Positions 1 to 13,776 of a DNA stretch of 24,000 nt are shown here, piece by piece; position 1 is the stretch's first letter, and each line of letters starts with the position of its first letter. The notes under the pieces are model-generated. The model had not been told where the DNA came from, did not search any database, and was given only the letters and a program-made list of their open reading frames with translations. Location: the NCBI RefSeq assembly GCF_000022545.1, contig NC_012883.1, forward strand, positions 712,276 through 736,275, read 5' to 3'. The DNA is from Thermococcus sibiricus MM 739 (GTDB lineage Archaea; Methanobacteriota_B; Thermococci; Thermococcales; Thermococcaceae). Made by a program: the position numbers and the translations under genes.

Positions 1-96
1 CGATTTTGGCCCATTATAGGCTTAGAGAAGAAGAAGGGATAGGAGTTACGATTGTCTTAACTTTGATGGTTTTAATAATCTTTTTAGTCTTTAGAG

Positions 97-735
97 TTAT
101 TGTTTGACCATTTGAAATGCTTTCCATAATCTATTGTTTGTAGATTTTATGATTTTGAAAGTTTTCTCGTCGTCTTTATAGATTTTGATCACAGTGCTGG
201 CTAGTTCTTCCAATAATGGAATCACATAGGGGATGTTATTCATTAGTACATCAGTGTTAATGAAATAAAAGGCAGTTCTTTTCCTACTTCCAGCATATCT
301 AGCAATTGTATTTACTAGGGCTAGAATCTCCAGCTTGGATTCAGCTAGTAAAAACAGTTTGTCGAGTCCAACTATGGGGACTGTTGCGTGTTCTATTCGA
401 GAGAGGATATGCTCATAGTTCATTTCAAATTCTTTTGTTAATGATAGTATATCACTAACCTGAAACCGTGTTATGACGTTCCCTACTTCTAACCTTCCCC
501 CAGTTTTAAGCACTTTTATGTTGTCTAATATTTTGGAGTCTATACCTGCAAGTTCCATCTGACTCTTGTATGTGTAGAGAGTATCGAGAATGTCTTCAAT
601 AACCAAAAAGTAACCTCTTTTTTTACTCCAAGCTGTTAACTCAGCAAGCTCTTTGTATGGAAACATCAGGGAGTCATGTTCTAGAAGCACAGTCTCTCCA
701 AACTTTAGTGAATCCCAAATAATATCTGTTTTCAT
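97..735 (-). CDS. KaiC/RecA-fold protein without a P-loop (DUF257-like), terminal gene of the archaellum cluster
   Basis: 212-aa ORF. Same block order as ArlH (6021-6716): 'FGETVLLEH' sits where ArlH has 'SGSLIFIEGDRGTGKS', and 'LLEELASTVIKI' matches ArlH 'ILEEITTMLIRL'. No GxxxxGK[ST] anywhere. A GGAGGT RBS lies inside the last codons of the upstream ORF, with a 5-nt gap. Clear paralog of 13093-13776. Confidence 0.75.
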   Translation of the reverse strand: MKTDIIWDSLKFGETVLLEHDSLMFPYKELAELTAWSKKRGYFLVIEDILDTLYTYKSQMELAGIDSKILDNIKVLKTGGRLEVGNVITRFQVSDILSLTKEFEMNYEHILSRIEHATVPIVGLDKLFLLAESKLEILALVNTIARYAGSRKRTAFYFINTDVLMNNIPYVIPLLEELASTVIKIYKDDEKTFKIIKSTNNRLWKAFQMVKQ

Positions 736-740
736 ATCTC

Positions 741-2678
741 TTACCTCCTACTCCTTTCTTCAAGTTTTGCAGCAATCCAAGCAAGGAGGAGTATAAAGGC
801 CATACCTCCTGTAAATCCAGCTCCACCAAAAAGAAGTTTCTGTTTTATTGGAAATACTGTTATTGTGGAGTTTAGGACTTTTGTGTGAGTCACTGTCGTT
901 GTAATGGTTTCTTTAATAATTTTTGGTGCAGTGGAAGTAGAGGTTTCGTCTGTAGAATTCCCAAAGTTCTCTTTTTCTATGGGTGCTGGAGTGGTGAAAA
1001 TCTCCACAACTGTAGAATTCTTGATAATATACTCTCCTTTTTTCAGTGCTGCTAGTATCTCGAATTCTCCTTCTTGGTTAGGTATGAAGATTAAGGAATA
1101 TGTTTTGTTCTCCTTGAGGTTTAATGAATCTTCAAAATAAACAAATCTCCCTTGGAGGTTTATGTTTTCCCCGATTATGGCAGATCTTTCTGGAAGTGCT
1201 ATTGTTATTGTAAACGGCCCTTTAGTGTTCCCCATGTTTACAACAGTAAGGTTAAGTTGAGTGCTACTACCTACTGTGCCATTTTGGCTGTTTAGAACAA
1301 GTTTGTATTTTGGAGTTGCATTGTCCACATTTATCCAACGGGTCTCCGAAGAAAATGAGATTCTAGCAAAACCATCACATGAAAGTTGGTATGGAACATT
1401 TGCCTGGATTTCAATGTTTCCCAGTTGTAGAAACCCTCCTTTCTTTGGTTCGATTCGGACGTTAAACTCTATCTTTTCCCCTACCCCAAGTTCTGGAATA
1501 TATAGTGGATATGAGCTTATGATTTTGAATTCTTCAGAAAGCTTTGGGACTATTTCAATATGCTTCAAATCAATGTCTCCTGTGTTTTTTATTACAATAG
1601 TGCTGTTGAATGGTTCAAATTGAAGAGCCATTGAGGGAGTTAAAAAAGAAACATTTGCAAATGCGTATTCTCCGACTTTTGGTATTTCTTTTTCGTCTAA
1701 AAACCCTATTATTTTTGCTACTTTTTTGGTAGCCATGTTACTTATTTCAGTGACCCCTATATGCAAACCTCCGTGTGATACTAATGTTCCAATTTTCCCT
1801 AAACGTATCCACGCGCTCTTAAGGGTCATTCCACACGTGTTTTTAATAGATATATAGACACCATCAGAGAATATTTTTTCGAGTTTAACAATATAAGGCC
1901 CTATTTGAGTATCTTTGCCTTCTTCCAGCTCTTTATATAAACTCGGAGAAATAGAGAGGGACACGTAAGCTCCGTTTATTTTTATCGCTGTCTTCAAGTA
2001 CATTGAACCAATCAACTCCTTAGTTTCAACAATAATTCCTTCGGCTTTCAACGTGTCCCCTACTTCTATCCAGTACTCCTTGTTGTTAATAGAGATCTTT
2101 GCAAATTCTTTGAGTTCTCCGTTGATTTCAGTAATATTATAATCTTCAAGCTTTATCTGCCAATCTTGAAGGTATTTGGTACTTCCTTTGTGAAGATACC
2201 CATCAAAAAGAAGGGGCATTATAGAAAGTTGGGCTGTTAATCCATTGAATTCTATCTTACCTCCATTATATATGAGTTCTTTTTCAATGTCATTATACCT
2301 AAGCCTAATTTTTGCCCTATTTTCTTCTATTGAGAGAAGTGTGAGGGCATAGTCTTCTGCTAAAAGAGTTTGGTTTTCTAGGAGATATGGAAAAGTAATG
2401 TTAAAAATAGCATAACCTCCATTTTCTTTTAAGAATACCGAATTCATGTAAACCGAATAAAAACTTGTGTTCAGTAGCGATTCTGGTTTCAGAATGTATT
2501 CTCTATTATTGAGTTCAACAAGCAAAGAACCTTCGGTTGGTGAAACGTCCCTGACCTCTAAGGGGTAATCTTTTATCCCAATTCTAGAGGGTATTTCTAC
2601 CCATCCTGTTATGATAGAGTGTGCAGTTACATATGGGAGTAGAATTATTAGGAATAAGAGAGAGATTAACTTTTTCAT
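741..2678 (-). CDS. Secreted, C-terminally membrane-anchored surface (glyco)protein with CARDB/Ig-like beta domains; co-operonic with arlJ
   Basis: 645-aa ORF. N-terminal signal peptide 'MKKLISLLFLIILLPYVTAHS'. Two CARDB-like segments ('STIVIKNTGDIDLKHIEIV...', 'LNLTVVNMGNTKGPFTITI...'). Thr/Ser-rich stalk 'TDETSTSTAP...TITTTVTHT'. C-terminal TM helix plus basic tail '...AFILLLAWIAAKLEERSRR'. 13 N-x-S/T sequons by my count. Its ATG overlaps the arlJ stop by 4 nt (2675-2678). Confidence 0.8.
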   Translation of the reverse strand: MKKLISLLFLIILLPYVTAHSIITGWVEIPSRIGIKDYPLEVRDVSPTEGSLLVELNNREYILKPESLLNTSFYSVYMNSVFLKENGGYAIFNITFPYLLENQTLLAEDYALTLLSIEENRAKIRLRYNDIEKELIYNGGKIEFNGLTAQLSIMPLLFDGYLHKGSTKYLQDWQIKLEDYNITEINGELKEFAKISINNKEYWIEVGDTLKAEGIIVETKELIGSMYLKTAIKINGAYVSLSISPSLYKELEEGKDTQIGPYIVKLEKIFSDGVYISIKNTCGMTLKSAWIRLGKIGTLVSHGGLHIGVTEISNMATKKVAKIIGFLDEKEIPKVGEYAFANVSFLTPSMALQFEPFNSTIVIKNTGDIDLKHIEIVPKLSEEFKIISSYPLYIPELGVGEKIEFNVRIEPKKGGFLQLGNIEIQANVPYQLSCDGFARISFSSETRWINVDNATPKYKLVLNSQNGTVGSSTQLNLTVVNMGNTKGPFTITIALPERSAIIGENINLQGRFVYFEDSLNLKENKTYSLIFIPNQEGEFEILAALKKGEYIIKNSTVVEIFTTPAPIEKENFGNSTDETSTSTAPKIIKETITTTVTHTKVLNSTITVFPIKQKLLFGGAGFTGGMAFILLLAWIAAKLEERSRR

Positions 2679-4393
2679 GTTATCACCCCCAGCAGAGGAA
2701 GTAAAATGCTTGAAAACGTCATCATTTTACCCATTATGAATTCCCCAAGATAGATACCTATTGCGGACATCCATGTAAGCATAACAAAATAATAGAGGGC
2801 TATTCCTAGGTGCCCTCCATCTGCAATTTTTATTGAGAATGCTGAAATTAAGGAGTGAACTAGAAGAATAGAAATAAGGATGTAGTTTGTTAGTTGGAGC
2901 CCTTCTGGGCTTGGAACAAAAAGTATGTCTTGAATGAACTCTCCTTGTAGCTGGACACTTGAGAAAAGGTGAGTCATGTAAACTGCAACTTGAAATGCTG
3001 CTGCGACAGAAAAGGCAAAAGCTCCAGTAACTCCATAGATAACCCCTTTAAAACTGGCCACGTTCTGTTTTCTCTTTCTTCTAAGTCTTAGAAGTCTCTC
3101 AAAGTTACTAGAAATGACTTTTCCTACATAATCGGGGTCCGCTCCTAAGTGTAGACTCTTTCTAAAGATGTCTGAGAAGATATCTATGAGCCAGCTTCCG
3201 GTCTCTGAAACGAAGTATTTCCATGATTTGGTATCGTCTATCTTGAGGGAAATTCTTTTGTTCAAGTTTCGGATATCTTTAGTGAGGCTTCCAAAATCGT
3301 GAGAGCTCAAATATTTTAGAACTAGTGCCATAGATACTCCACTAGCTGCTAAAGACGAGCTTAAGCTCCTCATAAACGATGGAAAGCTCTCATCTTTTAC
3401 CAAAATCTCTTCCTCTTCTTTTGAAAGAACGTATCCAATGTATGCTATCGGAGTCAAAAACAAAGCGATGGCGATTTCTATTGGCACATCAAATCTTACT
3501 CTTATTACAAAAAAGTATAAGATTCCAACAGCGGCCGTTCCAGCGATAGAGAGTAGGATAGCTCGTATTAATTTCTCTTTTCGTTCTGGATTCATTGCAT
3601 TGTGGGCCCATATATTATCTTCCGGCATTTTATGTTTTATCAAAATCAAGACTCCCATTTCCACGACCATAACAAGTATAAATGTAAAAATTGTAAGGGT
3701 TACTAAATCTTGCCCGGTAATAATCGGCCCTATAATAATAAAGGTCACCATAAATACTACAGAAATTATTAGAGAGCTATATACCTCCTTAAAGACGTCC
3801 AAGTCGTAGAGTGCTCCCTCATAAAATGTCTGATAATCATCCATCACAATTTTCTGCTCTTGGAGTAGATATTCTCTTAGCTCCACACCACTATCCAATG
3901 AATATGCGAGTCTTTCTAGAAAGTCTGAGAAGACCTTACTTGGTGTTCTCTTAACCAAAAATCTAAACGCTTCAGGCATTCCACGATTAAACTTTGCTAT
4001 TAAATGGTAGATTTTTTCCATATCTCTTGAAATAGGCTCTAAAACCTTCTCCTTTGCTAATGTGTGTATAAGCTCATTTCTTCCAACTTCACTAGTGGAA
4101 AGTACCGCAAAATAGGTTACAAAATAAGGGATTTTTGAATTTATTTTTACTTTTTTCCCACTTGCCATTGAGTAAGGGTGCATGATTGCGTAAACCAGAG
4201 GAAGAATGGGAATCGCATAGAGAGCAATCCGAATTATCCGTGAAATTGTAGTAAACCTGGGAACAAGTGAGAAAACTATGAAAAGAATGATACTCCCAGC
4301 TATGCTGGGCAATAATACTTTTCTTGCATACCTCTTCACATCCAAATCAGCTTGGATAAATATGCTGACTTTTTCTCTTGGCATCATATTCAC
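2675..4393 (-). CDS. arlJ: Archaellum polytopic membrane platform protein ArlJ (FlaJ), T2SS-F-like
   Basis: 572-aa ORF with many hydrophobic helices and two soluble T2SS-F-like segments. It lies immediately after arlI with a 0-nt gap, the canonical arlH-I-J order. Confidence 0.9.
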   Translation of the reverse strand: MNMMPREKVSIFIQADLDVKRYARKVLLPSIAGSIILFIVFSLVPRFTTISRIIRIALYAIPILPLVYAIMHPYSMASGKKVKINSKIPYFVTYFAVLSTSEVGRNELIHTLAKEKVLEPISRDMEKIYHLIAKFNRGMPEAFRFLVKRTPSKVFSDFLERLAYSLDSGVELREYLLQEQKIVMDDYQTFYEGALYDLDVFKEVYSSLIISVVFMVTFIIIGPIITGQDLVTLTIFTFILVMVVEMGVLILIKHKMPEDNIWAHNAMNPERKEKLIRAILLSIAGTAAVGILYFFVIRVRFDVPIEIAIALFLTPIAYIGYVLSKEEEEILVKDESFPSFMRSLSSSLAASGVSMALVLKYLSSHDFGSLTKDIRNLNKRISLKIDDTKSWKYFVSETGSWLIDIFSDIFRKSLHLGADPDYVGKVISSNFERLLRLRRKRKQNVASFKGVIYGVTGAFAFSVAAAFQVAVYMTHLFSSVQLQGEFIQDILFVPSPEGLQLTNYILISILLVHSLISAFSIKIADGGHLGIALYYFVMLTWMSAIGIYLGEFIMGKMMTFSSILLPLLGVIT

Positions 4394-6019
4394 CTACAAT
4401 CTAAAGCTTAATCCTTGAATGCCCTTTTCATAGAAGTTCTTTATCTCTCTATAGACATCCCAATAGTTAGTTATTCCAAGTTCTGCCATTCTCTGGATTA
4501 TCCTAGCTCTTAGAAATAGCTCGTTGTAAATGTCCTTTGGATCTTCATAACCAGCAACTTCAGCGATTTTCCTCTCAAGGATATATGAATTGTTCATACC
4601 TCTGAATATATGTTTATCACCCACAGAATCCCATTCAAACACACTCCTTGTTGCTACTCCTCCAAGCTCCTCATAATAACCTTCAATCTCAACAACGTTG
4701 AGGATCCTTCTCAGGAATCTTCCCTTAACATATACGGCCTGCTGAAAGAGAGCAATATTCAAATTATCTATAAAAGTCACAGGGACGTTTATTGGATGCC
4801 CGGTAAAACGTTGTATCATCTTCTTTATATCGCCGGCATGAAAAGTTGCCATGACTGGATGGCCCGTTTGCATGGCTTGAAAAGCAATTGCACCCTCTGC
4901 ACCTCTGATCTCACCTACAATGATATAATTTGGTCTTGATCTCAGTGCCGCTTTCAAGAGATCAAAAAGTGTAACTCTGCTTTCCTCAGGTCCTCTTTCT
5001 CTTGTTGTAAGTCTTTGCCAAGTAGGATGAGGAACAACAACCTCTGGAGTGTCTTCAGCAGTAAAAATCTTTGATTGAGGCTTGATGAAAGGAACGATAG
5101 AGTTTAAAGTGGTGGTTTTTCCACTTGCTGTTTCTCCACATACGAAAACACTCATACCATATTCTAATGCAAGCCATAAATATGCCGCGACTTCTGCAGA
5201 AAATGTATTCCACTTTACAAGTTGGACAACACTTAGGGGAGTAGTGGAGAATTTTCTTATTGTAGCTGAGGATCCTTTTATACTAACATCTGGGCTGTAT
5301 ATTATGTTGATTCTTGATCCATCTGGAAGTGTTCCATCAACAATGGGGTTTTTGTCACTAGCAGGCCTTCCAATTCTTTCACTTAAGGCCTTGAGATAAT
5401 CGGCCAATGTAATATTACTCTCAAATTTTATATTGGTGGGTAAAGCATCAAAGATCTTGTGAATTAAAGACACATATTCGGCACCCAATATGTGAATATC
5501 TTCAATATATGGATCTCTAATGAGAACCTCTAATGGCCCAATTCCTACAATATCTCTTTTTATGAGATATCTAAATTTCTCAATTTCTATTTTTGTTATT
5601 TTAACGTTTTTTCTAGAGAAAAAACCCCTATTGTTAATCTTCTGGAGGGCCTCATTATACAGTTGATCTAGGAATATTTCAAATTCCTCCCTGTTTTCGG
5701 GTATTGTCTTTGAAGGAGCAAGTTCAAGAATTTTTTCTTTGACTAGTTCGTATTTTACTCGCTCTTCTGTGTTCTGAATTCTGGGCTCTATTACTATGTA
5801 TTTTCTCTCTGTTTTTGGGTCTCCGTAAATGTGAACAAAAAGAGGGTCTCCGACTGGATATACTATGTTGGGATACTTTATTTCTTTCAGATCTCTGCTC
5901 AGTTGAGTGTAGAATTCTGGAACTTTTCCATATTTTTTAGTAAACTTTTCAACGTATTCTCTTAAGTGTGGATTTCTTGCCATTGCGGTTTCTAAGGTTT
6001 CTCTGCTAATCTCAGCCAT
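4394..6019 (-). CDS. arlI: Archaellum assembly/motor ATPase ArlI (FlaI), type II/IV secretion ATPase family
   Basis: 541 aa. Walker A 'GETASGKTT', Walker B/Asp box 'PNYIIVGEIRGAEG', His box 'GHPVMATFHA'. 1-nt gap to arlH. Confidence 0.95.
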   Translation of the reverse strand: MAEISRETLETAMARNPHLREYVEKFTKKYGKVPEFYTQLSRDLKEIKYPNIVYPVGDPLFVHIYGDPKTERKYIVIEPRIQNTEERVKYELVKEKILELAPSKTIPENREEFEIFLDQLYNEALQKINNRGFFSRKNVKITKIEIEKFRYLIKRDIVGIGPLEVLIRDPYIEDIHILGAEYVSLIHKIFDALPTNIKFESNITLADYLKALSERIGRPASDKNPIVDGTLPDGSRINIIYSPDVSIKGSSATIRKFSTTPLSVVQLVKWNTFSAEVAAYLWLALEYGMSVFVCGETASGKTTTLNSIVPFIKPQSKIFTAEDTPEVVVPHPTWQRLTTRERGPEESRVTLFDLLKAALRSRPNYIIVGEIRGAEGAIAFQAMQTGHPVMATFHAGDIKKMIQRFTGHPINVPVTFIDNLNIALFQQAVYVKGRFLRRILNVVEIEGYYEELGGVATRSVFEWDSVGDKHIFRGMNNSYILERKIAEVAGYEDPKDIYNELFLRARIIQRMAELGITNYWDVYREIKNFYEKGIQGLSFRL

Positions 6020-6020
6020 T

Positions 6021-6716
6021 CTACACCACCGCAGCTATCTCCACTATAAATCCTGCCTTGGGTTCTACTCTAAATGGAATTACCTTCTGAAAAACTCCCA
6101 TAGCATTGTTATACTTCACGATAGTGGCAGAATTTTTCAAGTCTCCTCCGAATACTTTGACCTGCAATCTTATGAGCATTGTAGTTATTTCTTCTAAAAT
6201 CGAGAGTACAGAAGAATCGAGATCACTTGGGTTTGCTGTTAATATTATGGCCTTGTTAAGAGCACTTAATTTTTTGAGATGTTCTGTAAACTTTCTCAAA
6301 GTCTCCTCATCTATTTTTGGAGGTAAAATGGAAGGCAGTGAATCTATGATAATAACATCTTTTTCCCACAATCGTTCCTCGCTCAAGAATCTTGGTAAAA
6401 ACCTTCCTCTTTTAGAAACACTGCTCAAAAGAGGATATAACGACACAAAAAGAAGTTTTCGTTTTGTCAGAAAGGGGATTACGCTATATCCTAGTGATTC
6501 CATTTGATTTATAAATTCAGGGGTTGTGAGTTGGGTAGAAACATAACTAACTTGAATGTCATTTTTTAGAAATCCATAAGCAAGCCTCTGGGAGAATATA
6601 GACTTTCCAGTCCCTCTGTCTCCCTCTATAAATATTAAACTCCCAGAGGGTATTCCTCCACCTAATCGTCTGTGAAGCTCATCATTTGGGATTTGCATTT
6701 TAAGTAAGCGAGTCAT
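6021..6716 (-). CDS. arlH: Archaellum KaiC/RecA-like ATP-binding protein ArlH (FlaH)
   Basis: Walker A 'GDRGTGKS', Walker B 'VIIIDSL'. Start moved to the ATG at 6716 ('MTRLLKMQIP...'), which is preceded by GAGGTGA plus a 5-nt spacer. The 6779 start would overlap arlG by 53 nt. Confidence 0.9.
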   Translation of the reverse strand: MTRLLKMQIPNDELHRRLGGGIPSGSLIFIEGDRGTGKSIFSQRLAYGFLKNDIQVSYVSTQLTTPEFINQMESLGYSVIPFLTKRKLLFVSLYPLLSSVSKRGRFLPRFLSEERLWEKDVIIIDSLPSILPPKIDEETLRKFTEHLKKLSALNKAIILTANPSDLDSSVLSILEEITTMLIRLQVKVFGGDLKNSATIVKYNNAMGVFQKVIPFRVEPKAGFIVEIAAVV

Positions 6717-6726
6717 GGTGTTCACC

Positions 6727-7164
6727 TCAGATTTTGAATATAAATTCACGCTGTTTTCCATTTTCAATGACCACAACAAGTTTGTGATAGCCGGAGGAAA
6801 GAGTAGTACTTATTCTCAACTCGCCGATATCATATGGATAAAGGGTAGATGGTGTCAGCGTGAGATTTGAAGGAGGAATGAGATTCCCGTCAATAAAGAC
6901 AATAATAGTGCTGCTTGTAAAGGAGAATTCCTCACTCCCAGTGTTTTTGATATAGAACACATAAGCTCCACCCAAGAAAGGAATATTCTCTGGATCATTT
7001 ATTATTGTGAAGTCCACTCTGAGATTTTGGGCTATTATTGTTCCTCTAGTGCTTATACTATCTGCTAAGTCCTGGGTCACTATATAAAGACCTCCAGCTA
7101 TTGTTCCTGCGACAAGGAGGGAAACAATGAAAAGGATTATTTCTGAAATTACTGAGCTCGCCAT
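6727..7164 (-). CDS. arlG: Archaellum stator/anchor protein ArlG (FlaG)
   Basis: Archaellin-like hydrophobic N-terminus 'MASSVISEIILFIVSLLVAGTIAGG' followed by a beta-rich domain. Position between arlF and arlH. Start chosen at the ATG at 7164, behind an AAGGTGAT RBS. The longer 7236 start would overlap arlF. Confidence 0.75.
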   Translation of the reverse strand: MASSVISEIILFIVSLLVAGTIAGGLYIVTQDLADSISTRGTIIAQNLRVDFTIINDPENIPFLGGAYVFYIKNTGSEEFSFTSSTIIVFIDGNLIPPSNLTLTPSTLYPYDIGELRISTTLSSGYHKLVVVIENGKQREFIFKI

Positions 7165-7174
7165 TAGTATCACC

Positions 7175-7690
7175 TTAGGAGCAGTACCAAGCTTTTCCAA
7201 CAATAGAAGGTTGACCAATCGTTTGATTTGGATCAAGCCATATCCATTTCCATTCTATTTTCAGAGAACACCCCGTTTCAGTTGCTACTATCAGACTGTG
7301 GATAATTTGATCCTTCACTTCAGTAGTTCGTATTAGTATGGATTCTCCGGGAAGTAAATACGCTTTATCCTCCACTATGAGTGTCGATCCATCGGGCTCC
7401 TTTAGTTGTCCATCACGAATAAAATCCCAATATCTAGGGGATAGGGTGGAGCCATTATTGCTAATATTGAAAGTTATTGTATAGATGGACACATCACTTC
7501 CAGGATTGATGTGAGAGACATCTTGTAGAGCAAGATATGACGTCTGGGATTTTATGAAAGTTTCTTTGTACGTTTCAACGGACTCAGCTATTGAAGTATA
7601 AGTATTCTCGAGAGAGATATAGAGAGTGCCAAATGCCATTATCGACGCAATGAATATCACTGCAAAGCTTGCTGAAACGCTGAATCCCAT
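7175..7690 (-). CDS. arlF: Archaellum stator/S-layer-binding protein ArlF (FlaF)
   Basis: 171 aa. Typical FlaF N-terminus 'MGFSVSASFAVIFIASIMAFG' plus a beta-sandwich-like remainder. Position after arlD. Confidence 0.75.
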   Translation of the reverse strand: MGFSVSASFAVIFIASIMAFGTLYISLENTYTSIAESVETYKETFIKSQTSYLALQDVSHINPGSDVSIYTITFNISNNGSTLSPRYWDFIRDGQLKEPDGSTLIVEDKAYLLPGESILIRTTEVKDQIIHSLIVATETGCSLKIEWKWIWLDPNQTIGQPSIVGKAWYCS

Positions 7691-7701
7691 ACCCTATCCC
7701 C

Positions 7702-8526
7702 TTAAACACCATATACATGTTCAAGAATCTTATTCATCATCTTGAGTTCTCTTTCTAGAGAGTTCAGGACTTCTGGGGTTATTTTAGTACCTCTTAGGCG
7801 CTCAATGAACAGGAGTGATATTAAGTGATCTTGAATCGTAAGTTTGTCATCTGGTTTCCAGTTTGGTTCTCTCTGGTGAGGTCTGGTCCCGTTTGCATAC
7901 TTCAATAGGCTTTCCAATACTTCTTCGGAGATCCACCCTATTGTATAGTAAAACTCAAGGATGTTTTCTAGATTCAGCACTCCTGCTCTGTCGATGAGGA
8001 AACCTAGCCATTTTAGTGCTATCATTGTTGAGGCAGTGTCATTTGGGAGATGATCTAATCTTGCCCTCATTTTTGTTGGGTTTATTAGGGCTTCTCTCAC
8101 ATCTTTCGGAATTTGAAATTCTTCAGTCAAGATTTCTTCCTCCCCACTCATATTATTTTCAATTAATTCAATCTTCGGGGGATCATAACTTTTAATTCCC
8201 TCTTGGTGTTCAACTTCAGGAATTCTCTCTGGAACTCTCTCGGACTTTTCATTAAATTCTTTATGAAGTGTTGTTTTGTCCATTAAATGTCTTCTTATTT
8301 CCTCTAAGTATTTCCCAATCTCTTCTACTCTTTTGTCTAACCTTCTGAGCCTTTCTGCTTGACTTGAATAGTTCTCGAGGACCTTGTTTATGATTAGATC
8401 CACTTGCTCTGGTGTTAAGATGTCTATTTTTGAAACTAATTTGTTTTTTAAGTCCTTGATAAGGACATTAGGTACTTCCCCCTGTAGCTTCTGAAGTTTA
8501 CTGTCTATCTCGTTCTCGGTTATCAT
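7702..8526 (-). CDS. arlD: Archaellum switch-complex protein ArlD (FlaD/E family)
   Basis: 274 aa. C-terminal FlaD/E signature 'LPNDTASTMIALKWLGFLIDRAG...LEFYYTIGWISEEV'. Start overlaps the arlC stop by 4 nt. Confidence 0.85.
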   Translation of the reverse strand: MITENEIDSKLQKLQGEVPNVLIKDLKNKLVSKIDILTPEQVDLIINKVLENYSSQAERLRRLDKRVEEIGKYLEEIRRHLMDKTTLHKEFNEKSERVPERIPEVEHQEGIKSYDPPKIELIENNMSGEEEILTEEFQIPKDVREALINPTKMRARLDHLPNDTASTMIALKWLGFLIDRAGVLNLENILEFYYTIGWISEEVLESLLKYANGTRPHQREPNWKPDDKLTIQDHLISLLFIERLRGTKITPEVLNSLERELKMMNKILEHVYGV

Positions 8527-9008
8527 GTTTCTCCCTCCGAGATTGCTTCGTATATTATCTTGTCGAGGTCTACCCCGTGATAGGCAAGGAGTTTCAAATC
8601 TCCTCTTATCTGTGCTATTTCTTTTCTAATATCTTCGAGATCTTGCTTTAGTTCATGTATTTCTTTTACTATTGGGTTTTCACTATCCAGATCCCTAAAG
8701 GGGTTTATCTCTTGTGATACTACTTCATAGAGCATCATGACATCTTTGATAGTTTTGTCAAGCTTTTCTATTTCATCTCTTAGTTCTTGGATTTGAGACT
8801 TCAAAGTGTCGATGTTGACCTTAATTCTTGGTAGCTCATTTTCGATTTCATTAATTCTGTTCATTATGAGGGTAATTTTTTCTTCATCTTCTTTCTGCTC
8901 TTTTGGGTTTTCTTGAGTGTTTCCTTCACTTAGAGCAAGTTCTAGTTGCTCGATTTCATCTTTTTCTGATTTTTTCTTGAACTTCTCTTTCAAATAACTG
9001 AACGACAT
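8523..9008 (-). CDS. arlC: Archaellum coiled-coil protein ArlC (FlaC)
   Basis: 161 aa, charged coiled coil with the FlaC_arch-type segment 'IKDVMMLYEVVSQEINPF'. Position between arlB and arlD. Confidence 0.8.
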   Translation of the reverse strand: MSFSYLKEKFKKKSEKDEIEQLELALSEGNTQENPKEQKEDEEKITLIMNRINEIENELPRIKVNIDTLKSQIQELRDEIEKLDKTIKDVMMLYEVVSQEINPFRDLDSENPIVKEIHELKQDLEDIRKEIAQIRGDLKLLAYHGVDLDKIIYEAISEGET

Positions 9009-9029: not shown

Positions 9030-9060
9030 ATTGAAAATTGAAAAATAGAAAGAATTGAAG
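9030..9060 (-). terminator. T-rich partial terminator/attenuator between arlB and arlC
   Basis: Minus strand after the arlB TGA reads 'TTCAATTCTTTCTATTTTTCAATTTTCAATC' (T5 and T4 runs). Oligo-T tracts are the archaeal termination signal. Confidence 0.4.
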
Positions 9061-9062
9061 CA

Positions 9063-9719
9063 TCACTTGAGCTCTATAATCTTGTAGGTTCCGTAGCTCG
9101 GTGGGGTTATGACCTTGGTGTAACCCGGTGCTCCAAATTCTGGCCTGACCTCAATAGCGATTTCCGTTCTTGTTGGGATTTCACTACCAAATACATCCTT
9201 TGCGTCTACGGTCAGAATCACTACATCTCCAGCGTTTATTGTTGGTGTGTCAGCGCTGAGTGAGTTATCAGCATCTTGAATCACAAGTATTCCAAAGTGA
9301 GTTCCATCGACGTTTGTGCTCCAAGCTCCTGATAATGTGGTATTGTCGAATATGTTGTTGGTGACTGTTTTGTTAAAGGCTCCAGATCCATACTCTAATA
9401 CTGCGACTGTATTTCCATCGTTTAAGTAGAGTTTTGTCTGGGTGAGATCAATTGGTTCGCTTCCTGCATTGAGTGAGATATATATTGCAAGCATGTCTAT
9501 TCCACTAGTACCTACATGACCAACTACCTTGTCTATCTTTAATCCGCTGGCAACTTCTTTTGTTGTTTGTCTTCCTGTGGCTTCTGCTCTTTGTTGCAAG
9601 TAGCCGCTGGTGTTGATGAGTACTGCTGCAGCTACTGCTGCCACTAGAACCATGGCTATAAACACAATCAGGGTACCAATACCAACAGCACCCCTCTTCT
9701 TACCAAAAATAGGCTTCAC
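9063..9719 (-). CDS. arlB: Archaellin ArlB (FlaB), the only copy in this window
   Basis: Class III signal peptide and conserved archaellin N-terminus 'KPIFGKKRG|AVGIGTLIVFIAMVLVAAVAAAVLINTSGYLQQ'. The tracked ORF begins at a TTG (9749). I place the start at the in-frame GTG at 9719, 7 nt after GGAGGTG, which gives a 10-residue leader. Confidence 0.9.
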   Translation of the reverse strand: MKPIFGKKRGAVGIGTLIVFIAMVLVAAVAAAVLINTSGYLQQRAEATGRQTTKEVASGLKIDKVVGHVGTSGIDMLAIYISLNAGSEPIDLTQTKLYLNDGNTVAVLEYGSGAFNKTVTNNIFDNTTLSGAWSTNVDGTHFGILVIQDADNSLSADTPTINAGDVVILTVDAKDVFGSEIPTRTEIAIEVRPEFGAPGYTKVITPPSYGTYKIIELK

Positions 9720-9768
9720 CTTTTGACACCTCCATTGGAAATTCTGCAATAGGATATAAGGTTCTTTG

Positions 9769-9786
9769 ACTATAAATCAATTTTTT
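9769..9786 (-). promoter_or_regulatory. Putative arlB promoter (A-rich BRE plus TTTATA box)
   Basis: Minus strand 'AAAAAATTGATTTATAG'. The TATA hexamer is at 9776-9771, about 52 nt upstream of the GTG start. The predicted TSS near 9747 leaves a leader containing the RBS. Confidence 0.5.
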
Positions 9787-9791
9787 GTTTT

Positions 9792-9835
9792 TACATTAAT
9801 CTTTACACATGTAAGTACATATGTAGGTATATACT
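9792..9835. promoter_or_regulatory. Cluster of TACATA-type hexamers/palindromes upstream of the arlB TATA box
   Basis: TACATT 9792-9797; TACACATGTA 9804-9813; perfect palindrome TACATATGTA 9816-9825 (two inverted TACATA); GTATATAC 9828-9835. Confidence 0.45.
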
Positions 9836-9919
9836 AACATTTGGTAGTAATTTTTAGAATTTGAAGAAATATGATAAAATTGGAATAAAGCCAAGATAAG
9901 ATAAAAGAACAACAAGATG

Positions 9920-10891
9920 TTACAATATTGGCTCAAGAACAAGAACAGATTTTCCATATTCACTTATTTTGGCATCCTTCCCATAGTATTCTAATGCATC
10001 AAGAATCTCAGATTTTTTTGGAAATCTTCTGAATTCTTTTGTGAGTTTTTCGAAAAATTCCCATGCAGCTATGTTTTCAAAATTCTCTCTAAATGGCTCT
10101 ACGATTATTAGTTTCCCTCTTTCATCCACCAAATTCAGAGCCTTTATAATGTTTCTGTGTACTTCAGGAAGATACTCGAGAACAAAACTCATTATAACTA
10201 AGTCATACTTTCTTTTAGGTATGGCATTTGTTATGTCAAGCTCTCTTAGGAACACCCAATCCATACCAAGTTCTCTTATTCTTTGTTGGGCTATGCTTAG
10301 TAATCCTGGGGAAAAGTCAATGCCGATATACTCTCCATTTGGACCCACATGTTTTCCGAGTTCTATCGGTGAGACCGAGCCGCAACCAAGATCAAGGATC
10401 CTCATTCCATCTCTAAGTCCACCAACCCTAACGATTATTTCTCTATATAACTTGTTTAGGGGATTTGAAAGTCGAATGTCCCAAAAGTCCGAGTCTTTGT
10501 CAAAGTCCATCATCACTTTAGAATTCTCGAAAGATAAAAATGCATAATTTGCCATTCTGACGATCTCATCTTGTATGTCAATCCATTCTGGAATAATATC
10601 TCGTAATCTCTCATATTCAAGGGTAAAAGTACGTAAGAACCTTTTAGGGCTTAATTCAGTCCCCTTAGCTTCTAGAATTCCTAACTCATAATATGCACTT
10701 AGTAGTGCTCTTAAGTAGGCTTTATTTTTGACATCTATTAAGTTTAAAATATCTTCAAGGGTTTTAGTTTTGTCCAGTTCCTTAAAAACGCCTAATCCCA
10801 ATCCAATTTTGACTGCATTAAAGAACGAAAAGTCAATAAGAGTTGAGAGATTGAAATCGAACTGTTTTATTAAGTCATCCATTTTTTGCAC
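9920..10891 (-). CDS. Class I SAM-dependent methyltransferase with an N-terminal dimerisation/wHTH-like domain
   Basis: 323 aa. Motif I 'RILDLGCGSVSP', acidic loop 'YIGIDFS', motif IV-like 'YDLVIMSFVLEY'. 1-nt gap after the wHTH gene. Confidence 0.85.
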   Translation of the reverse strand: MQKMDDLIKQFDFNLSTLIDFSFFNAVKIGLGLGVFKELDKTKTLEDILNLIDVKNKAYLRALLSAYYELGILEAKGTELSPKRFLRTFTLEYERLRDIIPEWIDIQDEIVRMANYAFLSFENSKVMMDFDKDSDFWDIRLSNPLNKLYREIIVRVGGLRDGMRILDLGCGSVSPIELGKHVGPNGEYIGIDFSPGLLSIAQQRIRELGMDWVFLRELDITNAIPKRKYDLVIMSFVLEYLPEVHRNIIKALNLVDERGKLIIVEPFRENFENIAAWEFFEKLTKEFRRFPKKSEILDALEYYGKDAKISEYGKSVLVLEPIL

Positions 10892-10892
10892 C

Positions 10893-11213
10893 TCACATAA
10901 ATCTACTATAATATGATTGATAAGTTTTTAGGAATCCAACAACTTTTTCCCCGTGCTCAGTAAGTTTGTAATATTTAAACCCATTTTGAGTAATCTCCTC
11001 TACCAAGCCAAGATGAACTAAGGAACTATCTCCATTATAGCGGTTTCCCATGCCGACTAGGGCCCCTTTTACATTGGAAGGATCTGATCTGACGATTCTA
11101 GCAATCTCGGAAAGGTATGTAGGAGAGGGGTAAATCTCATGTAAGTAGAAAAGAATCTTTTTTCTTAGTTCGCTCCTGTGTAATGATCGTAAGATGTGAG
11201 GATCAATTACCAA
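10893..11213 (-). CDS. Small winged-helix transcription regulator, candidate archaellum regulator (EarA-like?)
   Basis: 106 aa. 'RKKILFYLHEIYPSPTYLSEIARIVRSDPSNVKGAL' is an HTH followed by a wing ('LVEEITQNGFKYYKLTEHG'). TTG start behind a GGGGGGA RBS. Located directly upstream of the arl genes. Confidence 0.65.
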   Translation of the reverse strand: MVIDPHILRSLHRSELRKKILFYLHEIYPSPTYLSEIARIVRSDPSNVKGALVGMGNRYNGDSSLVHLGLVEEITQNGFKYYKLTEHGEKVVGFLKTYQSYYSRFM

Positions 11214-11541: not shown

Positions 11542-12991
11542 ATGGACGTAGTTTGGACTACACTTGTTTTATACATGGGAGCAATGCTAGGAATTTCAGT
11601 ATATGCCAGAAAATACATTAAAACCTCGGCCGACTTTTTGGTGGCCGGGAGAAGACTAGGGTTAGCACTAACCACTGCAACTTTGGCAGCCACTCACTAT
11701 GGTGGTGGCTTTCATCTTGGGAGGAGCTAGCTGGGGAGCCACCTATGGATTAGGAGGAATCTGGTACGGTTTTGCCTGTGGTCTGGGGCTTCTTCTCTTG
11801 GGTCTGACTCTTGCAAAGCCCATGCGCGCTTTAGCATTATACACAGTCCCAGATGTTTTGGAGATGCGTTACAAGAGTAAGGCAATAAGACTTCTAGCTG
11901 CAATGCTTTCGCTTCTGGCCCTTGTAGGTATACTTGGGGCGCAAGTATGGGCAGCATCAGCAGTCTTTGAAGCTATAGGCCTTCCTGGAACTGCAGGAGC
12001 GGTATTTGCCACGCTTATCTTCATAGCCTACACGGCCTTTTCTGGATTGTGGGCAGTAGCTTTGACGGACTTTATCCAGATAATACTTGGAAGCATTGGT
12101 GTTTTAGTTGCAGTAGTTCTCGGTTTGAATAAGGTGGGGGGCTTTGAAGGGCTTAGAACAAGCCTTTCAGCGATTCCAAACCTACCACAGGCAGGTGGAG
12201 AGTATTTCAACTTCATGTCTTTGGGCATTTCCCTATTTGCTCTAACGTTAGCAGCAACAGTAATGTACACTTTGATAGGCCAAGATTTCTACCAGAGGCT
12301 TTTTGCATCAAATGATGAGAAAACGGCCAGAAAAGGTGCGATTTACAGTGGGGTACTGCTTATGGTACTATCTTTCCTCCCAGCCCTTGCGGGAATGCTT
12401 GCATTAACCCTTTCTAGCGATCCACAGGCGATAATCGATTCACCAAAGACTGCAGTACCAAAATTGATAATCACAGTATTTGGAAGTGGTGTTGGAGCGA
12501 TATTCGTGGCCGCAATCCTTGCGGCGGTAATGAGCACGGCCGATTCACTTTTATCAGCGGCAACTTCTCACGTGGTTAAGGACTTATACCAGAGCTTCAT
12601 AGAACCTGAAGCAGAGGATAAAAAGTTACTGAATCTCTCAATAGGAACCACAGTAGCTATAGGGGTTTTAGCACTTGTAGCAGCACTTACTATTCAGGGG
12701 ATAATTGAACTTCTCATATATTCCTACGACATCTATACTTCGGGGGTCTTTGTACCACTGTTGCTTGGAATCTACTGGAAGAGGGCCACAAAAGAGGGTG
12801 CTTTGCTGGGAATGATAGCGGGCTCATTGGTTGCTGTTGTAGGGATAACAGGGTTAGTGAGCTTCAGCTACTGGGAATACATATACGTAAGTGGAGCTCT
12901 TGTTTCGGCAGTGGTTATGGTGCTTGTTAGCCTTTTAACATCACCAGAGCCTATTGATAAAGAGCTTCAAAAGGTGTTTGAGCTCTCTTGA
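11542..12991 (+). pseudogene. Sodium:solute symporter (SSS/SSF family), reading frame broken by a +1 insertion near 11710-11713
   Basis: N-terminal piece 'MDVVWTTLVLYMGAMLGISVYARKYIKTSADFLVAGRRLGLALTTATLAATHYGGGF' stops at 11730. The next frame continues 'FILGGASWGATYGLGGIWYG...' for about 425 aa of polytopic membrane protein. The join fits a single contiguous SSS TM1-TM2 region. Confidence 0.8.
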
Positions 12992-13092: not shown

Positions 13093-13776
13093 ATGAATGA
13101 AAGTAAGAGAGATCTAACACTTGACTCAATATTGCTTGGAATCAAGCCGGGGGAAACTGTACTGGTTGAATACACTCCCATATCATCTCCTGAAATCCTA
13201 TTGTATCTTATGATAACTAAGTGCATGAAAAGAGGTGTTCCGGTTATAATTGATGATATCGCCGATACTTTTTCAGAGTATATCACAAGGCTTAAAATTT
13301 TGGGAGTTCCAACTGAGGATCTCTTAAACGCTCCAGTTATAAAAATCGGTGGAGATAAAAATGTTGGGAAAGTTCTAGGAAACGTTGAAATTAGAAGGTA
13401 CTCTTTAGACTTTGTTGCGTATAGTGAAGTTTACGAGAAGGTCGCTCCAAAGGAGATTGTTTGTAATCCGGTTTTGGGGATCCACAAACTTTTTGTATCC
13501 CTTGATCTGCAGGATGCCAGAGGGCTTGTTCGCAATATTGCAAGCTTTGTGGGGAATGAAACTCGTTTTGCGGTGTACTTTATAAATCGGGAAATACTAA
13601 AAGAAAAATCGTTAGAAATCCTCGGTCTTCTTGAAGAGATCTCCACAAGCGTGTTTAGGTGGGAACTCCATAAGGAGGTTTACAAGCTAAGCGTCATCAA
13701 ATCTCCCAATCCTGATATCTTAGGATCAGAGTTTTCTTTCTCAGCTGCAGATCTCTCTAAACTTATAAAGCGATAA
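13093..13776 (+). CDS. Second P-loop-less KaiC/RecA-fold (DUF257-like) protein, paralog of 97-735
   Basis: 227 aa. Blocks shared with the 97-735 product: 'KPGETVLVEY'/'KFGETVLLEH', 'KRGVPVIIDDIADT'/'KRGYFLVIEDILDT', 'VIKIGG'/'VLKTGG', 'RFAVYFINREIL'/'RTAFYFINTDVL', 'LLEEISTSV'/'LLEELASTV', 'VIKSPN'/'IIKSTN'. Confidence 0.8.
   Translation: MNESKRDLTLDSILLGIKPGETVLVEYTPISSPEILLYLMITKCMKRGVPVIIDDIADTFSEYITRLKILGVPTEDLLNAPVIKIGGDKNVGKVLGNVEIRRYSLDFVAYSEVYEKVAPKEIVCNPVLGIHKLFVSLDLQDARGLVRNIASFVGNETRFAVYFINREILKEKSLEILGLLEEISTSVFRWELHKEVYKLSVIKSPNPDILGSEFSFSAADLSKLIKR

Follow-up and report, generated by a model that had tools for sequence, protein, structure and literature searches.

In the archaellum gene clusters of Pyrococcus furiosus and Thermococcus kodakarensis, the gene for the membrane platform protein ArlJ (FlaJ) is directly followed by PF0329 and TK0050, respectively. 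In T. kodakarensis, the flaJ gene TK0049 (42705-44444) and TK0050 (44441-46435, 664 amino acids (aa)) overlap by four nucleotides (nt) at 44441-44444, and pcm comes next (Jager 2014 supplement). The corresponding region of Thermococcus sibiricus MM 739 is considered here in a stretch of 24,000 nt (contig NC_012883.1, positions 712,276 to 736,275 of the forward strand), which is called the window. A complete archaellum cluster of the Arl1 type lies on its minus strand, where arlJ is followed by two more open reading frames (ORFs) of 645 and 212 aa. A preliminary description of this DNA took these two genes for a lineage-specific accessory module of the archaellum. Comparison across the Thermococcales separates them. 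Judged by gene order, the 645-aa gene represents the conserved last member of the Arl1-type cluster in Thermococcales. The 212-aa gene, a member of family DUF257, is a later add-on in two lineages and probably not a general archaellum component.

Published data from a single organism, T. kodakarensis, support co-expression of the 645-aa family gene with the arl genes. The published map contains no transcription start site (TSS) for TK0049 and places none ahead of the TK0050 start codon. Those on the sense strand that are assigned to TK0050 (44714, 44865) are internal, and in its read counts TK0050 resembles flaI and flaJ (Jager 2014 supplement). In histone mutants, expression of TK0050 is reduced 5.4-6.5-fold alongside a 5.9-8.1-fold reduction of flaH, flaI and flaJ (PMC8155482). 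Long-read sequencing in P. furiosus found no enriched internal 5' ends. The authors concluded that all transcripts probably derive from arlB0, and they count 'arlJ and a hypothetical gene' among the cluster members (Stockl 2023; PMC10665913).

A second described system occurs in Methanococcales, where arCOG05057 proteins also have multiple immunoglobulin (Ig)-like domains, resemble surface layer (S-layer) proteins and are encoded in archaellum loci (bioRxiv 10.64898/2026.04.22.720090). In this literature 'S-layer-like' refers to architecture only, and such proteins are proposed to prime or locally modify the S-layer, letting the filament pass (bioRxiv 10.64898/2026.04.22.720090). The same preprint cites Makarova 2016 as having noted the Thermococcales protein; the accessible text of the Makarova 2016 supplement contains neither the PF0329 nor the TK0050 identifier. 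Thus, the association with arlJ and the leading hypothesis for its meaning are already published. The preliminary description had called both products not known as archaellum components, which overlooked this earlier notice of the 645-aa family. None of the NCBIfam families for curated Arl components (ArlA-J, ArlX) matches the 645-aa protein, nor does any S-layer model. No Methanococcales homolog was recovered by an exhaustive profile search with the Thermococcales family, and arCOG05057 is compared here by its description. At most, the two families are analogous or related too distantly for detection.

The same profile search, made against 1.84 billion representative sequences, recovers about 20 full-length clusters with proteins of 610-672 aa and little else. 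Named members come from P. furiosus (AAL80453), P. horikoshii, P. yayanosii, P. kukulkanii, T. litoralis, T. barophilus, T. celericrescens, T. henrietii, Thermococcus sp. P6 and Palaeococcus ferrophilus. All named clusters are therefore Thermococcales, from the genera Pyrococcus, Thermococcus and Palaeococcus. The closest named relative of the 645-aa protein is that of Thermococcus sp. MV5 (88% identity). Word-index homology searches with two family alignments return 15-16 close proteins, none of them from T. kodakarensis or Pyrococcus. AAL80453.1 is matched by the profile at E=1.9e-62 over residues 1-639. The gene for AAL80453 stands between flaJ and a convergent gene, which makes it the PF0329 of Nather-Schindler 2014, and the 645-aa protein is the ortholog of PF0329. 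The two proteins are only about 25% identical. They nevertheless share full-length homology, a length class and the same layout of signal peptide, Ig domains and C-terminal anchor, and PF0329 and TK0050, like the 645-aa gene, come right after arlJ, which their starts overlap or nearly overlap.

The family is essentially single-copy. The only family-like sequence found away from arlJ is an 890-aa 'exported protein of unknown function' from a 103-kb T. nautili plasmid, with a partial match (NZ_OX281346.1, 15895-16605) to residues 270-502 of the 645-aa protein at 28% identity. The VARTIG module of hypervariable Ig proteins (PMC8416519) was considered as a possible counterpart and set aside; no arl link is described there, and the present family is single-copy and orthologous. 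Ratios of nonsynonymous to synonymous substitution (dN/dS) are 0.23 for the 645-aa gene, 0.10-0.13 for the DUF257 gene and 0.08-0.13 for arlI and arlJ. By this measure both downstream genes are under purifying selection.

Gene order ties the family to the archaellum cluster. A family member lies directly 3' of arlJ in all eight context look-ups that yielded a locus. A scan of metagenomes with an ArlJ profile added 30 loci, and a scan of genome contigs with a single ArlJ protein gave three very close ones. Among the resulting 44 loci, 41 could be judged and 38 of these have the family gene after arlJ. What lies beyond it varies, and DUF257, amidohydrolase, AcnX and HD protein genes as well as convergent genes are all found there. 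The neighbour is a coupled DUF257 gene in the window, a convergent gene in P. furiosus and pcm in T. kodakarensis. These patterns support the view that the 645-aa gene is evolutionarily locked to arlJ. The label 'lineage-specific' is therefore mistaken for this gene, which is syntenic with arlJ across the whole order in Pyrococcus, Thermococcus and Palaeococcus. The notion of an arlJ-adjacent pair holds for its first member only, as no lineage other than that of the window and Thermococcus sp. 2319x1 has a DUF257 gene next.

The junctions between these genes are tight. The reported ATGA overlap between arlJ and the 645-aa ORF at 2678-2675 was confirmed by direct reading of the minus strand (TGA at 2677-2675, ATG at 2678-2676). 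The 3' end of arlJ reads ...GGG GTG ATA ACA TGA, and its last codons contain a Shine-Dalgarno (SD)-like motif, GGGGGTGAT at 2690-2682, that is absent from the preliminary description. At the second junction, GGAGGT is located as described at 748-743, within the last codon and the stop codon (743-741) of the 645-aa ORF, which ends ...AGG AGG TAA. It is followed by the 5-nt gap 'gagat' (740-736) and by the ATG of the 212-aa ORF (735-733). With one overlap and one 5-nt gap, both genes are indeed packed tightly onto the 3' end of the arl string. The earlier remark that no oligo-T terminator is visible is correct to the extent that there is no intergenic space at all. Sense-strand runs of T5-T6 do occur within coding sequence, however, with six in the 645-aa ORF, two in the 212-aa ORF and five in arlJ. 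Such runs are present in all other arl genes as well, which makes the argument uninformative. A convergent Mem_trans-like gene shares its last 11 nt (97-107) with the 3' end of the 212-aa ORF. The co-directional arl string thus ends there, and there is no space for a terminator on either strand.

Comparison of 32 distinct arlJ/645-family junctions from other genomes and metagenomes reveals that this arrangement is conserved. Each of the 32 has, within the last codons of arlJ, a G-rich motif of the SD type, which in most cases is GGGGGTG. An overlap of four nucleotides (ATGA or GTGA) is present in 23 of them, and the spacing in the others is -1, +1, +5 or +6. Conservation over this number of distinct sequences indicates more than chance. 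In the one clade that lacks the 645-family gene (L030, L032 and L034), the arlJ Gly-Val codons are GGC GTT or GGT GTC instead of GGG GTG. The motif is missing where the gene is missing, even though Gly-Val is kept, which argues for selection on the nucleotides and not on the protein alone. This pattern suggests that the SD-like motif in arlJ is maintained for the sake of the downstream gene.

The 645-aa protein has the predicted features of a cell-surface protein that the preliminary description listed: a signal peptide, a C-terminal anchor, many sequons, Ig domains and a stalk, described there as Thr/Ser and here found to be Thr-rich. Its signal peptide has neither a lipobox cysteine nor a class III motif. 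No Pfam family matches residues 20-330, which form an N-terminal all-beta region in which Cys282 is nearly invariant across the family. The protein contains 13 N-X-S/T sequons, compared to 5.4 +/- 2.1 in shuffled sequences. Its CARDB (PF07705) score of 19.5 bits falls short of the Pfam cut-off of 22.7, and BatD and DUF7507 are also below cut-off; the weak CARDB and BatD matches span residues 463-544. CARDB is matched in 12 of 21 family members (best E 2e-9) and TRAPPC13_C in 13 of 21. The family profile also matches Protein Data Bank (PDB) entries 2KL6 and 3IDU, both titled 'Uncharacterized protein', at E values of about 2-3e-5 over profile positions 456-554. These entries are presumably structures of CARDB domains. 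The anchor has the family motif GG.F.GG..FILLLAWIAAKLEER, and no archaeosortase signal (PGF-CTERM or a relative) was detected, either as an NCBIfam match or as a PGF, PEF or PIP motif.

ArlF and ArlG, which form the archaellum stator and bind the S-layer, offer a comparison within the cluster. Like the 645-aa protein they are extracytoplasmic, beta-rich and membrane-anchored, and they are believed to connect the motor with the S-layer. Their anchors are N-terminal and archaellin-like (Pfam Arch_flagellin), whereas the 645-aa protein combines a cleavable Sec signal with a C-terminal anchor. It is also about four times larger and has no sequence similarity to either protein.

The 212-aa protein belongs to DUF257 (161.5 bits in Pfam compared to a cut-off of 25, model positions 4-201 of 205). 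It matches PDB entry 2EKD (PH0250) over residues 8-187, at E=3.8e-23 and, with a profile, at E=2.6e-46. It lacks a signal peptide, a transmembrane segment and a Walker A motif, and is predicted to be cytoplasmic. PH0250 has no known arl link, unlike the copy in the window, which is embedded in the arl string. A DUF257 gene follows the 645-family gene only in L001, L002 and L014, which represent the window's lineage, and in L004 (Thermococcus sp. 2319x1), in which a 4-nt overlap joins the pair. It is absent from this position in the similarly close lineage of L003, L016 and L017 (ArlJ 83% identical). A second DUF257 paralog is encoded at 13093-13776 on the plus strand (227 aa, 180 bits in Pfam, 30% identical to the operon copy). 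It is separated from earA by about 2 kb, is not part of the arl string and occupies the same place in L001 and L002. Since this copy stands outside the operon, the family is not arl-specific. A role for DUF257 in defence or in mobile elements finds no support, as PADLOC, PHROGs and a plasmid collection all gave no match.

Expression of the 645-aa gene most likely depends on read-through transcription from the arl promoters. Its translation is most likely tied to that of arlJ, with the SD-like motif in the last arlJ codons and the ATGA overlap as the means of ribosome coupling. Such coupling would cause the product to be made alongside the ArlJ membrane platform. The product would be a type I membrane glycoprotein that, after cleavage of its Sec signal, exposes a beta-sandwich ectodomain of about 540 aa whose last two modules are CARDB-type Ig domains. 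It would be heavily N-glycosylated. A Thr-rich stalk of about 55 aa would precede a transmembrane anchor at the C-terminal end, with a short charged tail in the cytoplasm. Beyond the observed sequence, topology, synteny and junction conservation, its location and mechanism are inferred. It would act in the pseudoperiplasm or at the level of the S-layer, beside the motor, and might locally adapt or patch the S-layer or brace the ArlF/G stator at the point where the filament passes through the envelope. The DUF257 gene would reuse the same read-through and coupling arrangement.

On balance, a functional link of the 645-aa protein to the archaellum, as an accessory at the level of the envelope, is considered moderately probable. 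A specific mechanism as an S-layer portal or brace is less likely than the link itself. The most explicit form of this model makes the protein a structural archaellum part, made together with ArlJ by translational coupling, which would be either a glycosylated, C-terminally anchored collar or portal that keeps the S-layer open or re-seals it around the rotating filament or a tie from ArlF/G to the S-layer, with the P-loop-less DUF257 protein as a cytoplasmic partner recruited in the window's lineage. It is offered tentatively and is rather unlikely to be correct in full. Several observations weigh against any role of this kind. The clade without the family gene has an intact series from arlB to arlJ, and its arlJ (579 aa, the same length as TK0049) is followed directly by pcm. 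Given the T. kodakarensis order flaJ-TK0050-pcm, this looks like a clean deletion. Loss in a clade with intact arl genes implies that the protein is not universally required, unless the gene has moved elsewhere in the genome. In P. furiosus, reverse transcription PCR (RT-PCR) and Northern analysis never gave a flaJ-PF0329 co-transcript, PF0329 was excluded from the operon, and its product was not reported in purified flagella (PMC4263178). The preliminary description had mentioned two P. furiosus genes as reported to be co-transcribed with fla; there is only one, PF0329, and it was reported not to be co-transcribed (PMC4263178). Membership of TK0050 in the family is inferred from its position, size (664 aa) and annotation. 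The top 50 Foldseek matches in the PDB are integrins, alpha-2-macroglobulin/complement proteins and ciliary Ig proteins with template modelling (TM) scores of at most 0.26, and such generic multi-Ig folds tie the ectodomain to no mechanism. Finally, family members are 34-37% identical where ArlJ is 63-65% and ArlI 82% identical, and divergence faster than that of the motor proteins also fits a generic surface protein. This divergence, the loss in a clade with intact arl genes and the P. furiosus results, together with a dN/dS value two to three times that of arlI and arlJ and an Ig/CARDB architecture common to many unrelated surface proteins, would be accommodated if the protein were a general surface glycoprotein or adhesin riding on the tail of the arl transcript. 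It might, for example, serve attachment when cells are archaellated, and it would have neither a physical nor a mechanical role in the archaellum. This explanation is rather unlikely. It does not readily account for a position and a coupling signal that are kept in three genera while other neighbours change, for a near single-copy family with only a partial paralog on the T. nautili plasmid away from arlJ, or for an SD motif that is preserved through codon choice.

It is improbable that the downstream genes are independent of arl, with a promoter hidden inside arlJ or the 645-aa gene and an overlap that merely reflects genome compaction. Overlapping genes are common in compact archaeal genomes, and the negative P. 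furiosus transcript assays described above agree with such a promoter. A crude regular-expression scan for strings resembling a B recognition element (BRE) and TATA box found a weak match, AAAAATTATTAA, at 924 in the 645-aa gene, about 190 nt upstream of the DUF257 gene. The same scan found none within arlJ. The lack of a TSS in TK0049 and of enriched internal 5' ends in P. furiosus, the co-regulation of TK0050 with flaH-J and the conserved coupling signals also argue for dependence on the arl transcript. Equally doubtful is the two-part module of the preliminary description, in which the partner of the 645-aa protein would be DUF257, as a pseudo-ATPase of the KaiC/ArlH type that lacks a P-loop and works on ArlH/ArlI or ArlCDE. 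In its favour, tight coupling of the two genes is seen in two lineages with 645-aa proteins that share only 55% identity, purifying selection acts on DUF257, and 2EKD was deposited with six chains. The 212-aa protein is also similar in size to ArlH, and a single weak hhalign match places the two in a possible beta1/(P-loop position)/alpha1/beta2 register, as a RecA/KaiC-like core that has no P-loop would show, with DUF257 'GETVLLEH' opposite the ArlH strand before Walker A and 'MELAGID' opposite 'MESLGY'. However, this match against nine ArlH sequences has a probability of 4.4% over 61 columns, and no KaiC or AAA family is matched in Pfam at E<=1, so the assignment of the protein as 'ArlH/KaiC-like' is not upheld and stands only as a lead. 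NCBIfam Arl models give only chance matches to it and the FlaH model gives none, in contrast to the 357 bits scored by the window's ArlH. The absence of a P-loop was correctly noted, as Walker A (GxxGxGK[ST]) occurs in none of six aligned DUF257 sequences; the candidate Walker B position in these varies between D, H and E, so that neither site is conserved. The gene is also absent after the 645-family gene in all other lineages, a paralog exists outside the operon, and the single-sequence AlphaFold2 (AF2) model of the protein reaches a predicted local distance difference test (pLDDT) value of only 42.5. The present analysis provides no evidence for a motor role of the DUF257 protein.

Table. 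Features of the archaellum region in the window, and the corresponding intervals in the three loci that lack the 645-family gene
Feature	Position	Strand	Evidence
earA	10893-11213	-	
S-adenosylmethionine (SAM) methyltransferase gene	9920-10891	-	
arlB, single copy	9063-9749	-	
arlC	8523-9008	-	
arlD	7702-8526	-	
arlF	7175-7690	-	
arlG	6727-7236	-	
arlH	6021-6779	-	357 bits to FlaH model (NCBIfam)
arlI	4394-6019	-	
arlJ, membrane platform, 572 aa	2675-4393	-	NCBIfam ArlJ/FlaJ 724.8 bits; Pfam T2SSF
SD-like motif GGGGGTGAT	2682-2690	-	within arlJ Leu-Gly-Val codons, 3-5 nt before the 645-aa gene ATG
ATGA start/stop overlap of arlJ and 645-aa gene	2675-2678	-	
645-aa ORF, gene for PF0329/TK0050-family type I membrane glycoprotein (predicted)	741-2678	-	full-length homologs, synteny, dN/dS
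Sec-type signal peptide MKKLISLLFLIILLPYVTA/HS, residues 1-20	2619-2678	-	family alignments; helix at residues 3-12 in model
N-terminal all-beta region, residues 20-330	1689-2621	-	AF2 block-mean pLDDT about 83-94, strands only
Two Ig-like (E-set/CARDB-type) domains, about residues 340-450 and 455-562	1017-1661	-	weak Pfam matches, profile matches, AF2 strands
Thr-rich disordered stalk, residues 566-622	813-983	-	pLDDT <50; 12 Thr in 57 residues; sequons N574, N603
C-terminal transmembrane anchor GGAGFTGGMAFILLLAWIAA, then charged tail KLEERSRR	753-812	-	helix 624-642; ..ILLAW.. kept family-wide
GGAGGT ribosome-binding site for DUF257 gene	743-748	-	
212-aa ORF, DUF257 (PF03192) gene	97-735	-	Pfam 161.5 bits
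Mem_trans-like transporter gene, 3' end, convergent	1-107	+	stop 105-107; homologous ORF in L014, Mem_trans in L004
Clade without family gene	L030 5998-8406, L032 3854-6297, L034 5992-8434		

The upstream part of the cluster has features of its own. It contains a single arlB, which distinguishes it from the P. furiosus and T. kodakarensis clusters. The true start of this gene is probably a GTG near 9719, after GGAGGTG, which yields the class III signal KKRGA/VGIG. Upstream of arlB (9750-9860, minus strand) are TACATA-type repeats, tacctacatatgtacttacatgtg, and an ATTTATA box. These repeats resemble EarA-binding sites. A T-rich stretch, ttctttctatttttcaattttcaa, follows arlB (9030-9062, minus strand) and fits the published intergenic poly(T) attenuators.

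Between earA and the second DUF257 paralog, a sodium:solute symporter gene (PF00474; 11543-12991, plus strand) is broken into two ORFs, an N-terminal one of 62 aa and one of 430 aa in the +1 frame. To join them as ...HYGGGF/ILGGASW..., one nucleotide has to be skipped at GGC TTT C ATC. The break occurs at the identical nucleotide in two metagenome-assembled genomes and in Thermococcus sp. 2319x1, whose genome is complete, and both halves are 96-100% conserved (about 2386-2824 in L001, 2381-2819 in L002 and 731-1169 in L004). A break that is shared in this way is not an assembly error. Either +1 frameshifting takes place at a conserved site, or the transporter is genuinely split; the second ORF has its own ATG at 11699.

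The association of this family with arlJ was known before, and the window adds one ortholog and a DUF257 add-on in two lineages, a contribution of modest value. New here are the quantified conservation of the junction, the codon-level evidence for selection on the SD motif, the clade that has lost the gene while its arl genes are intact and the corrected account of the P. furiosus data. A gene for an envelope protein is thus locked to arlJ across the order by its position and by nucleotide-level coupling signals. Its orthologs in two genetically tractable models are PF0329 in P. furiosus and, probably, TK0050 in T. kodakarensis. The subject bears on how the archaellum filament crosses the S-layer, and is braced against it, in Euryarchaeota. 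If the protein does form a collar or portal, it would be an envelope-level component that cryo-electron tomography and genetics have so far left unassigned in Euryarchaeota.

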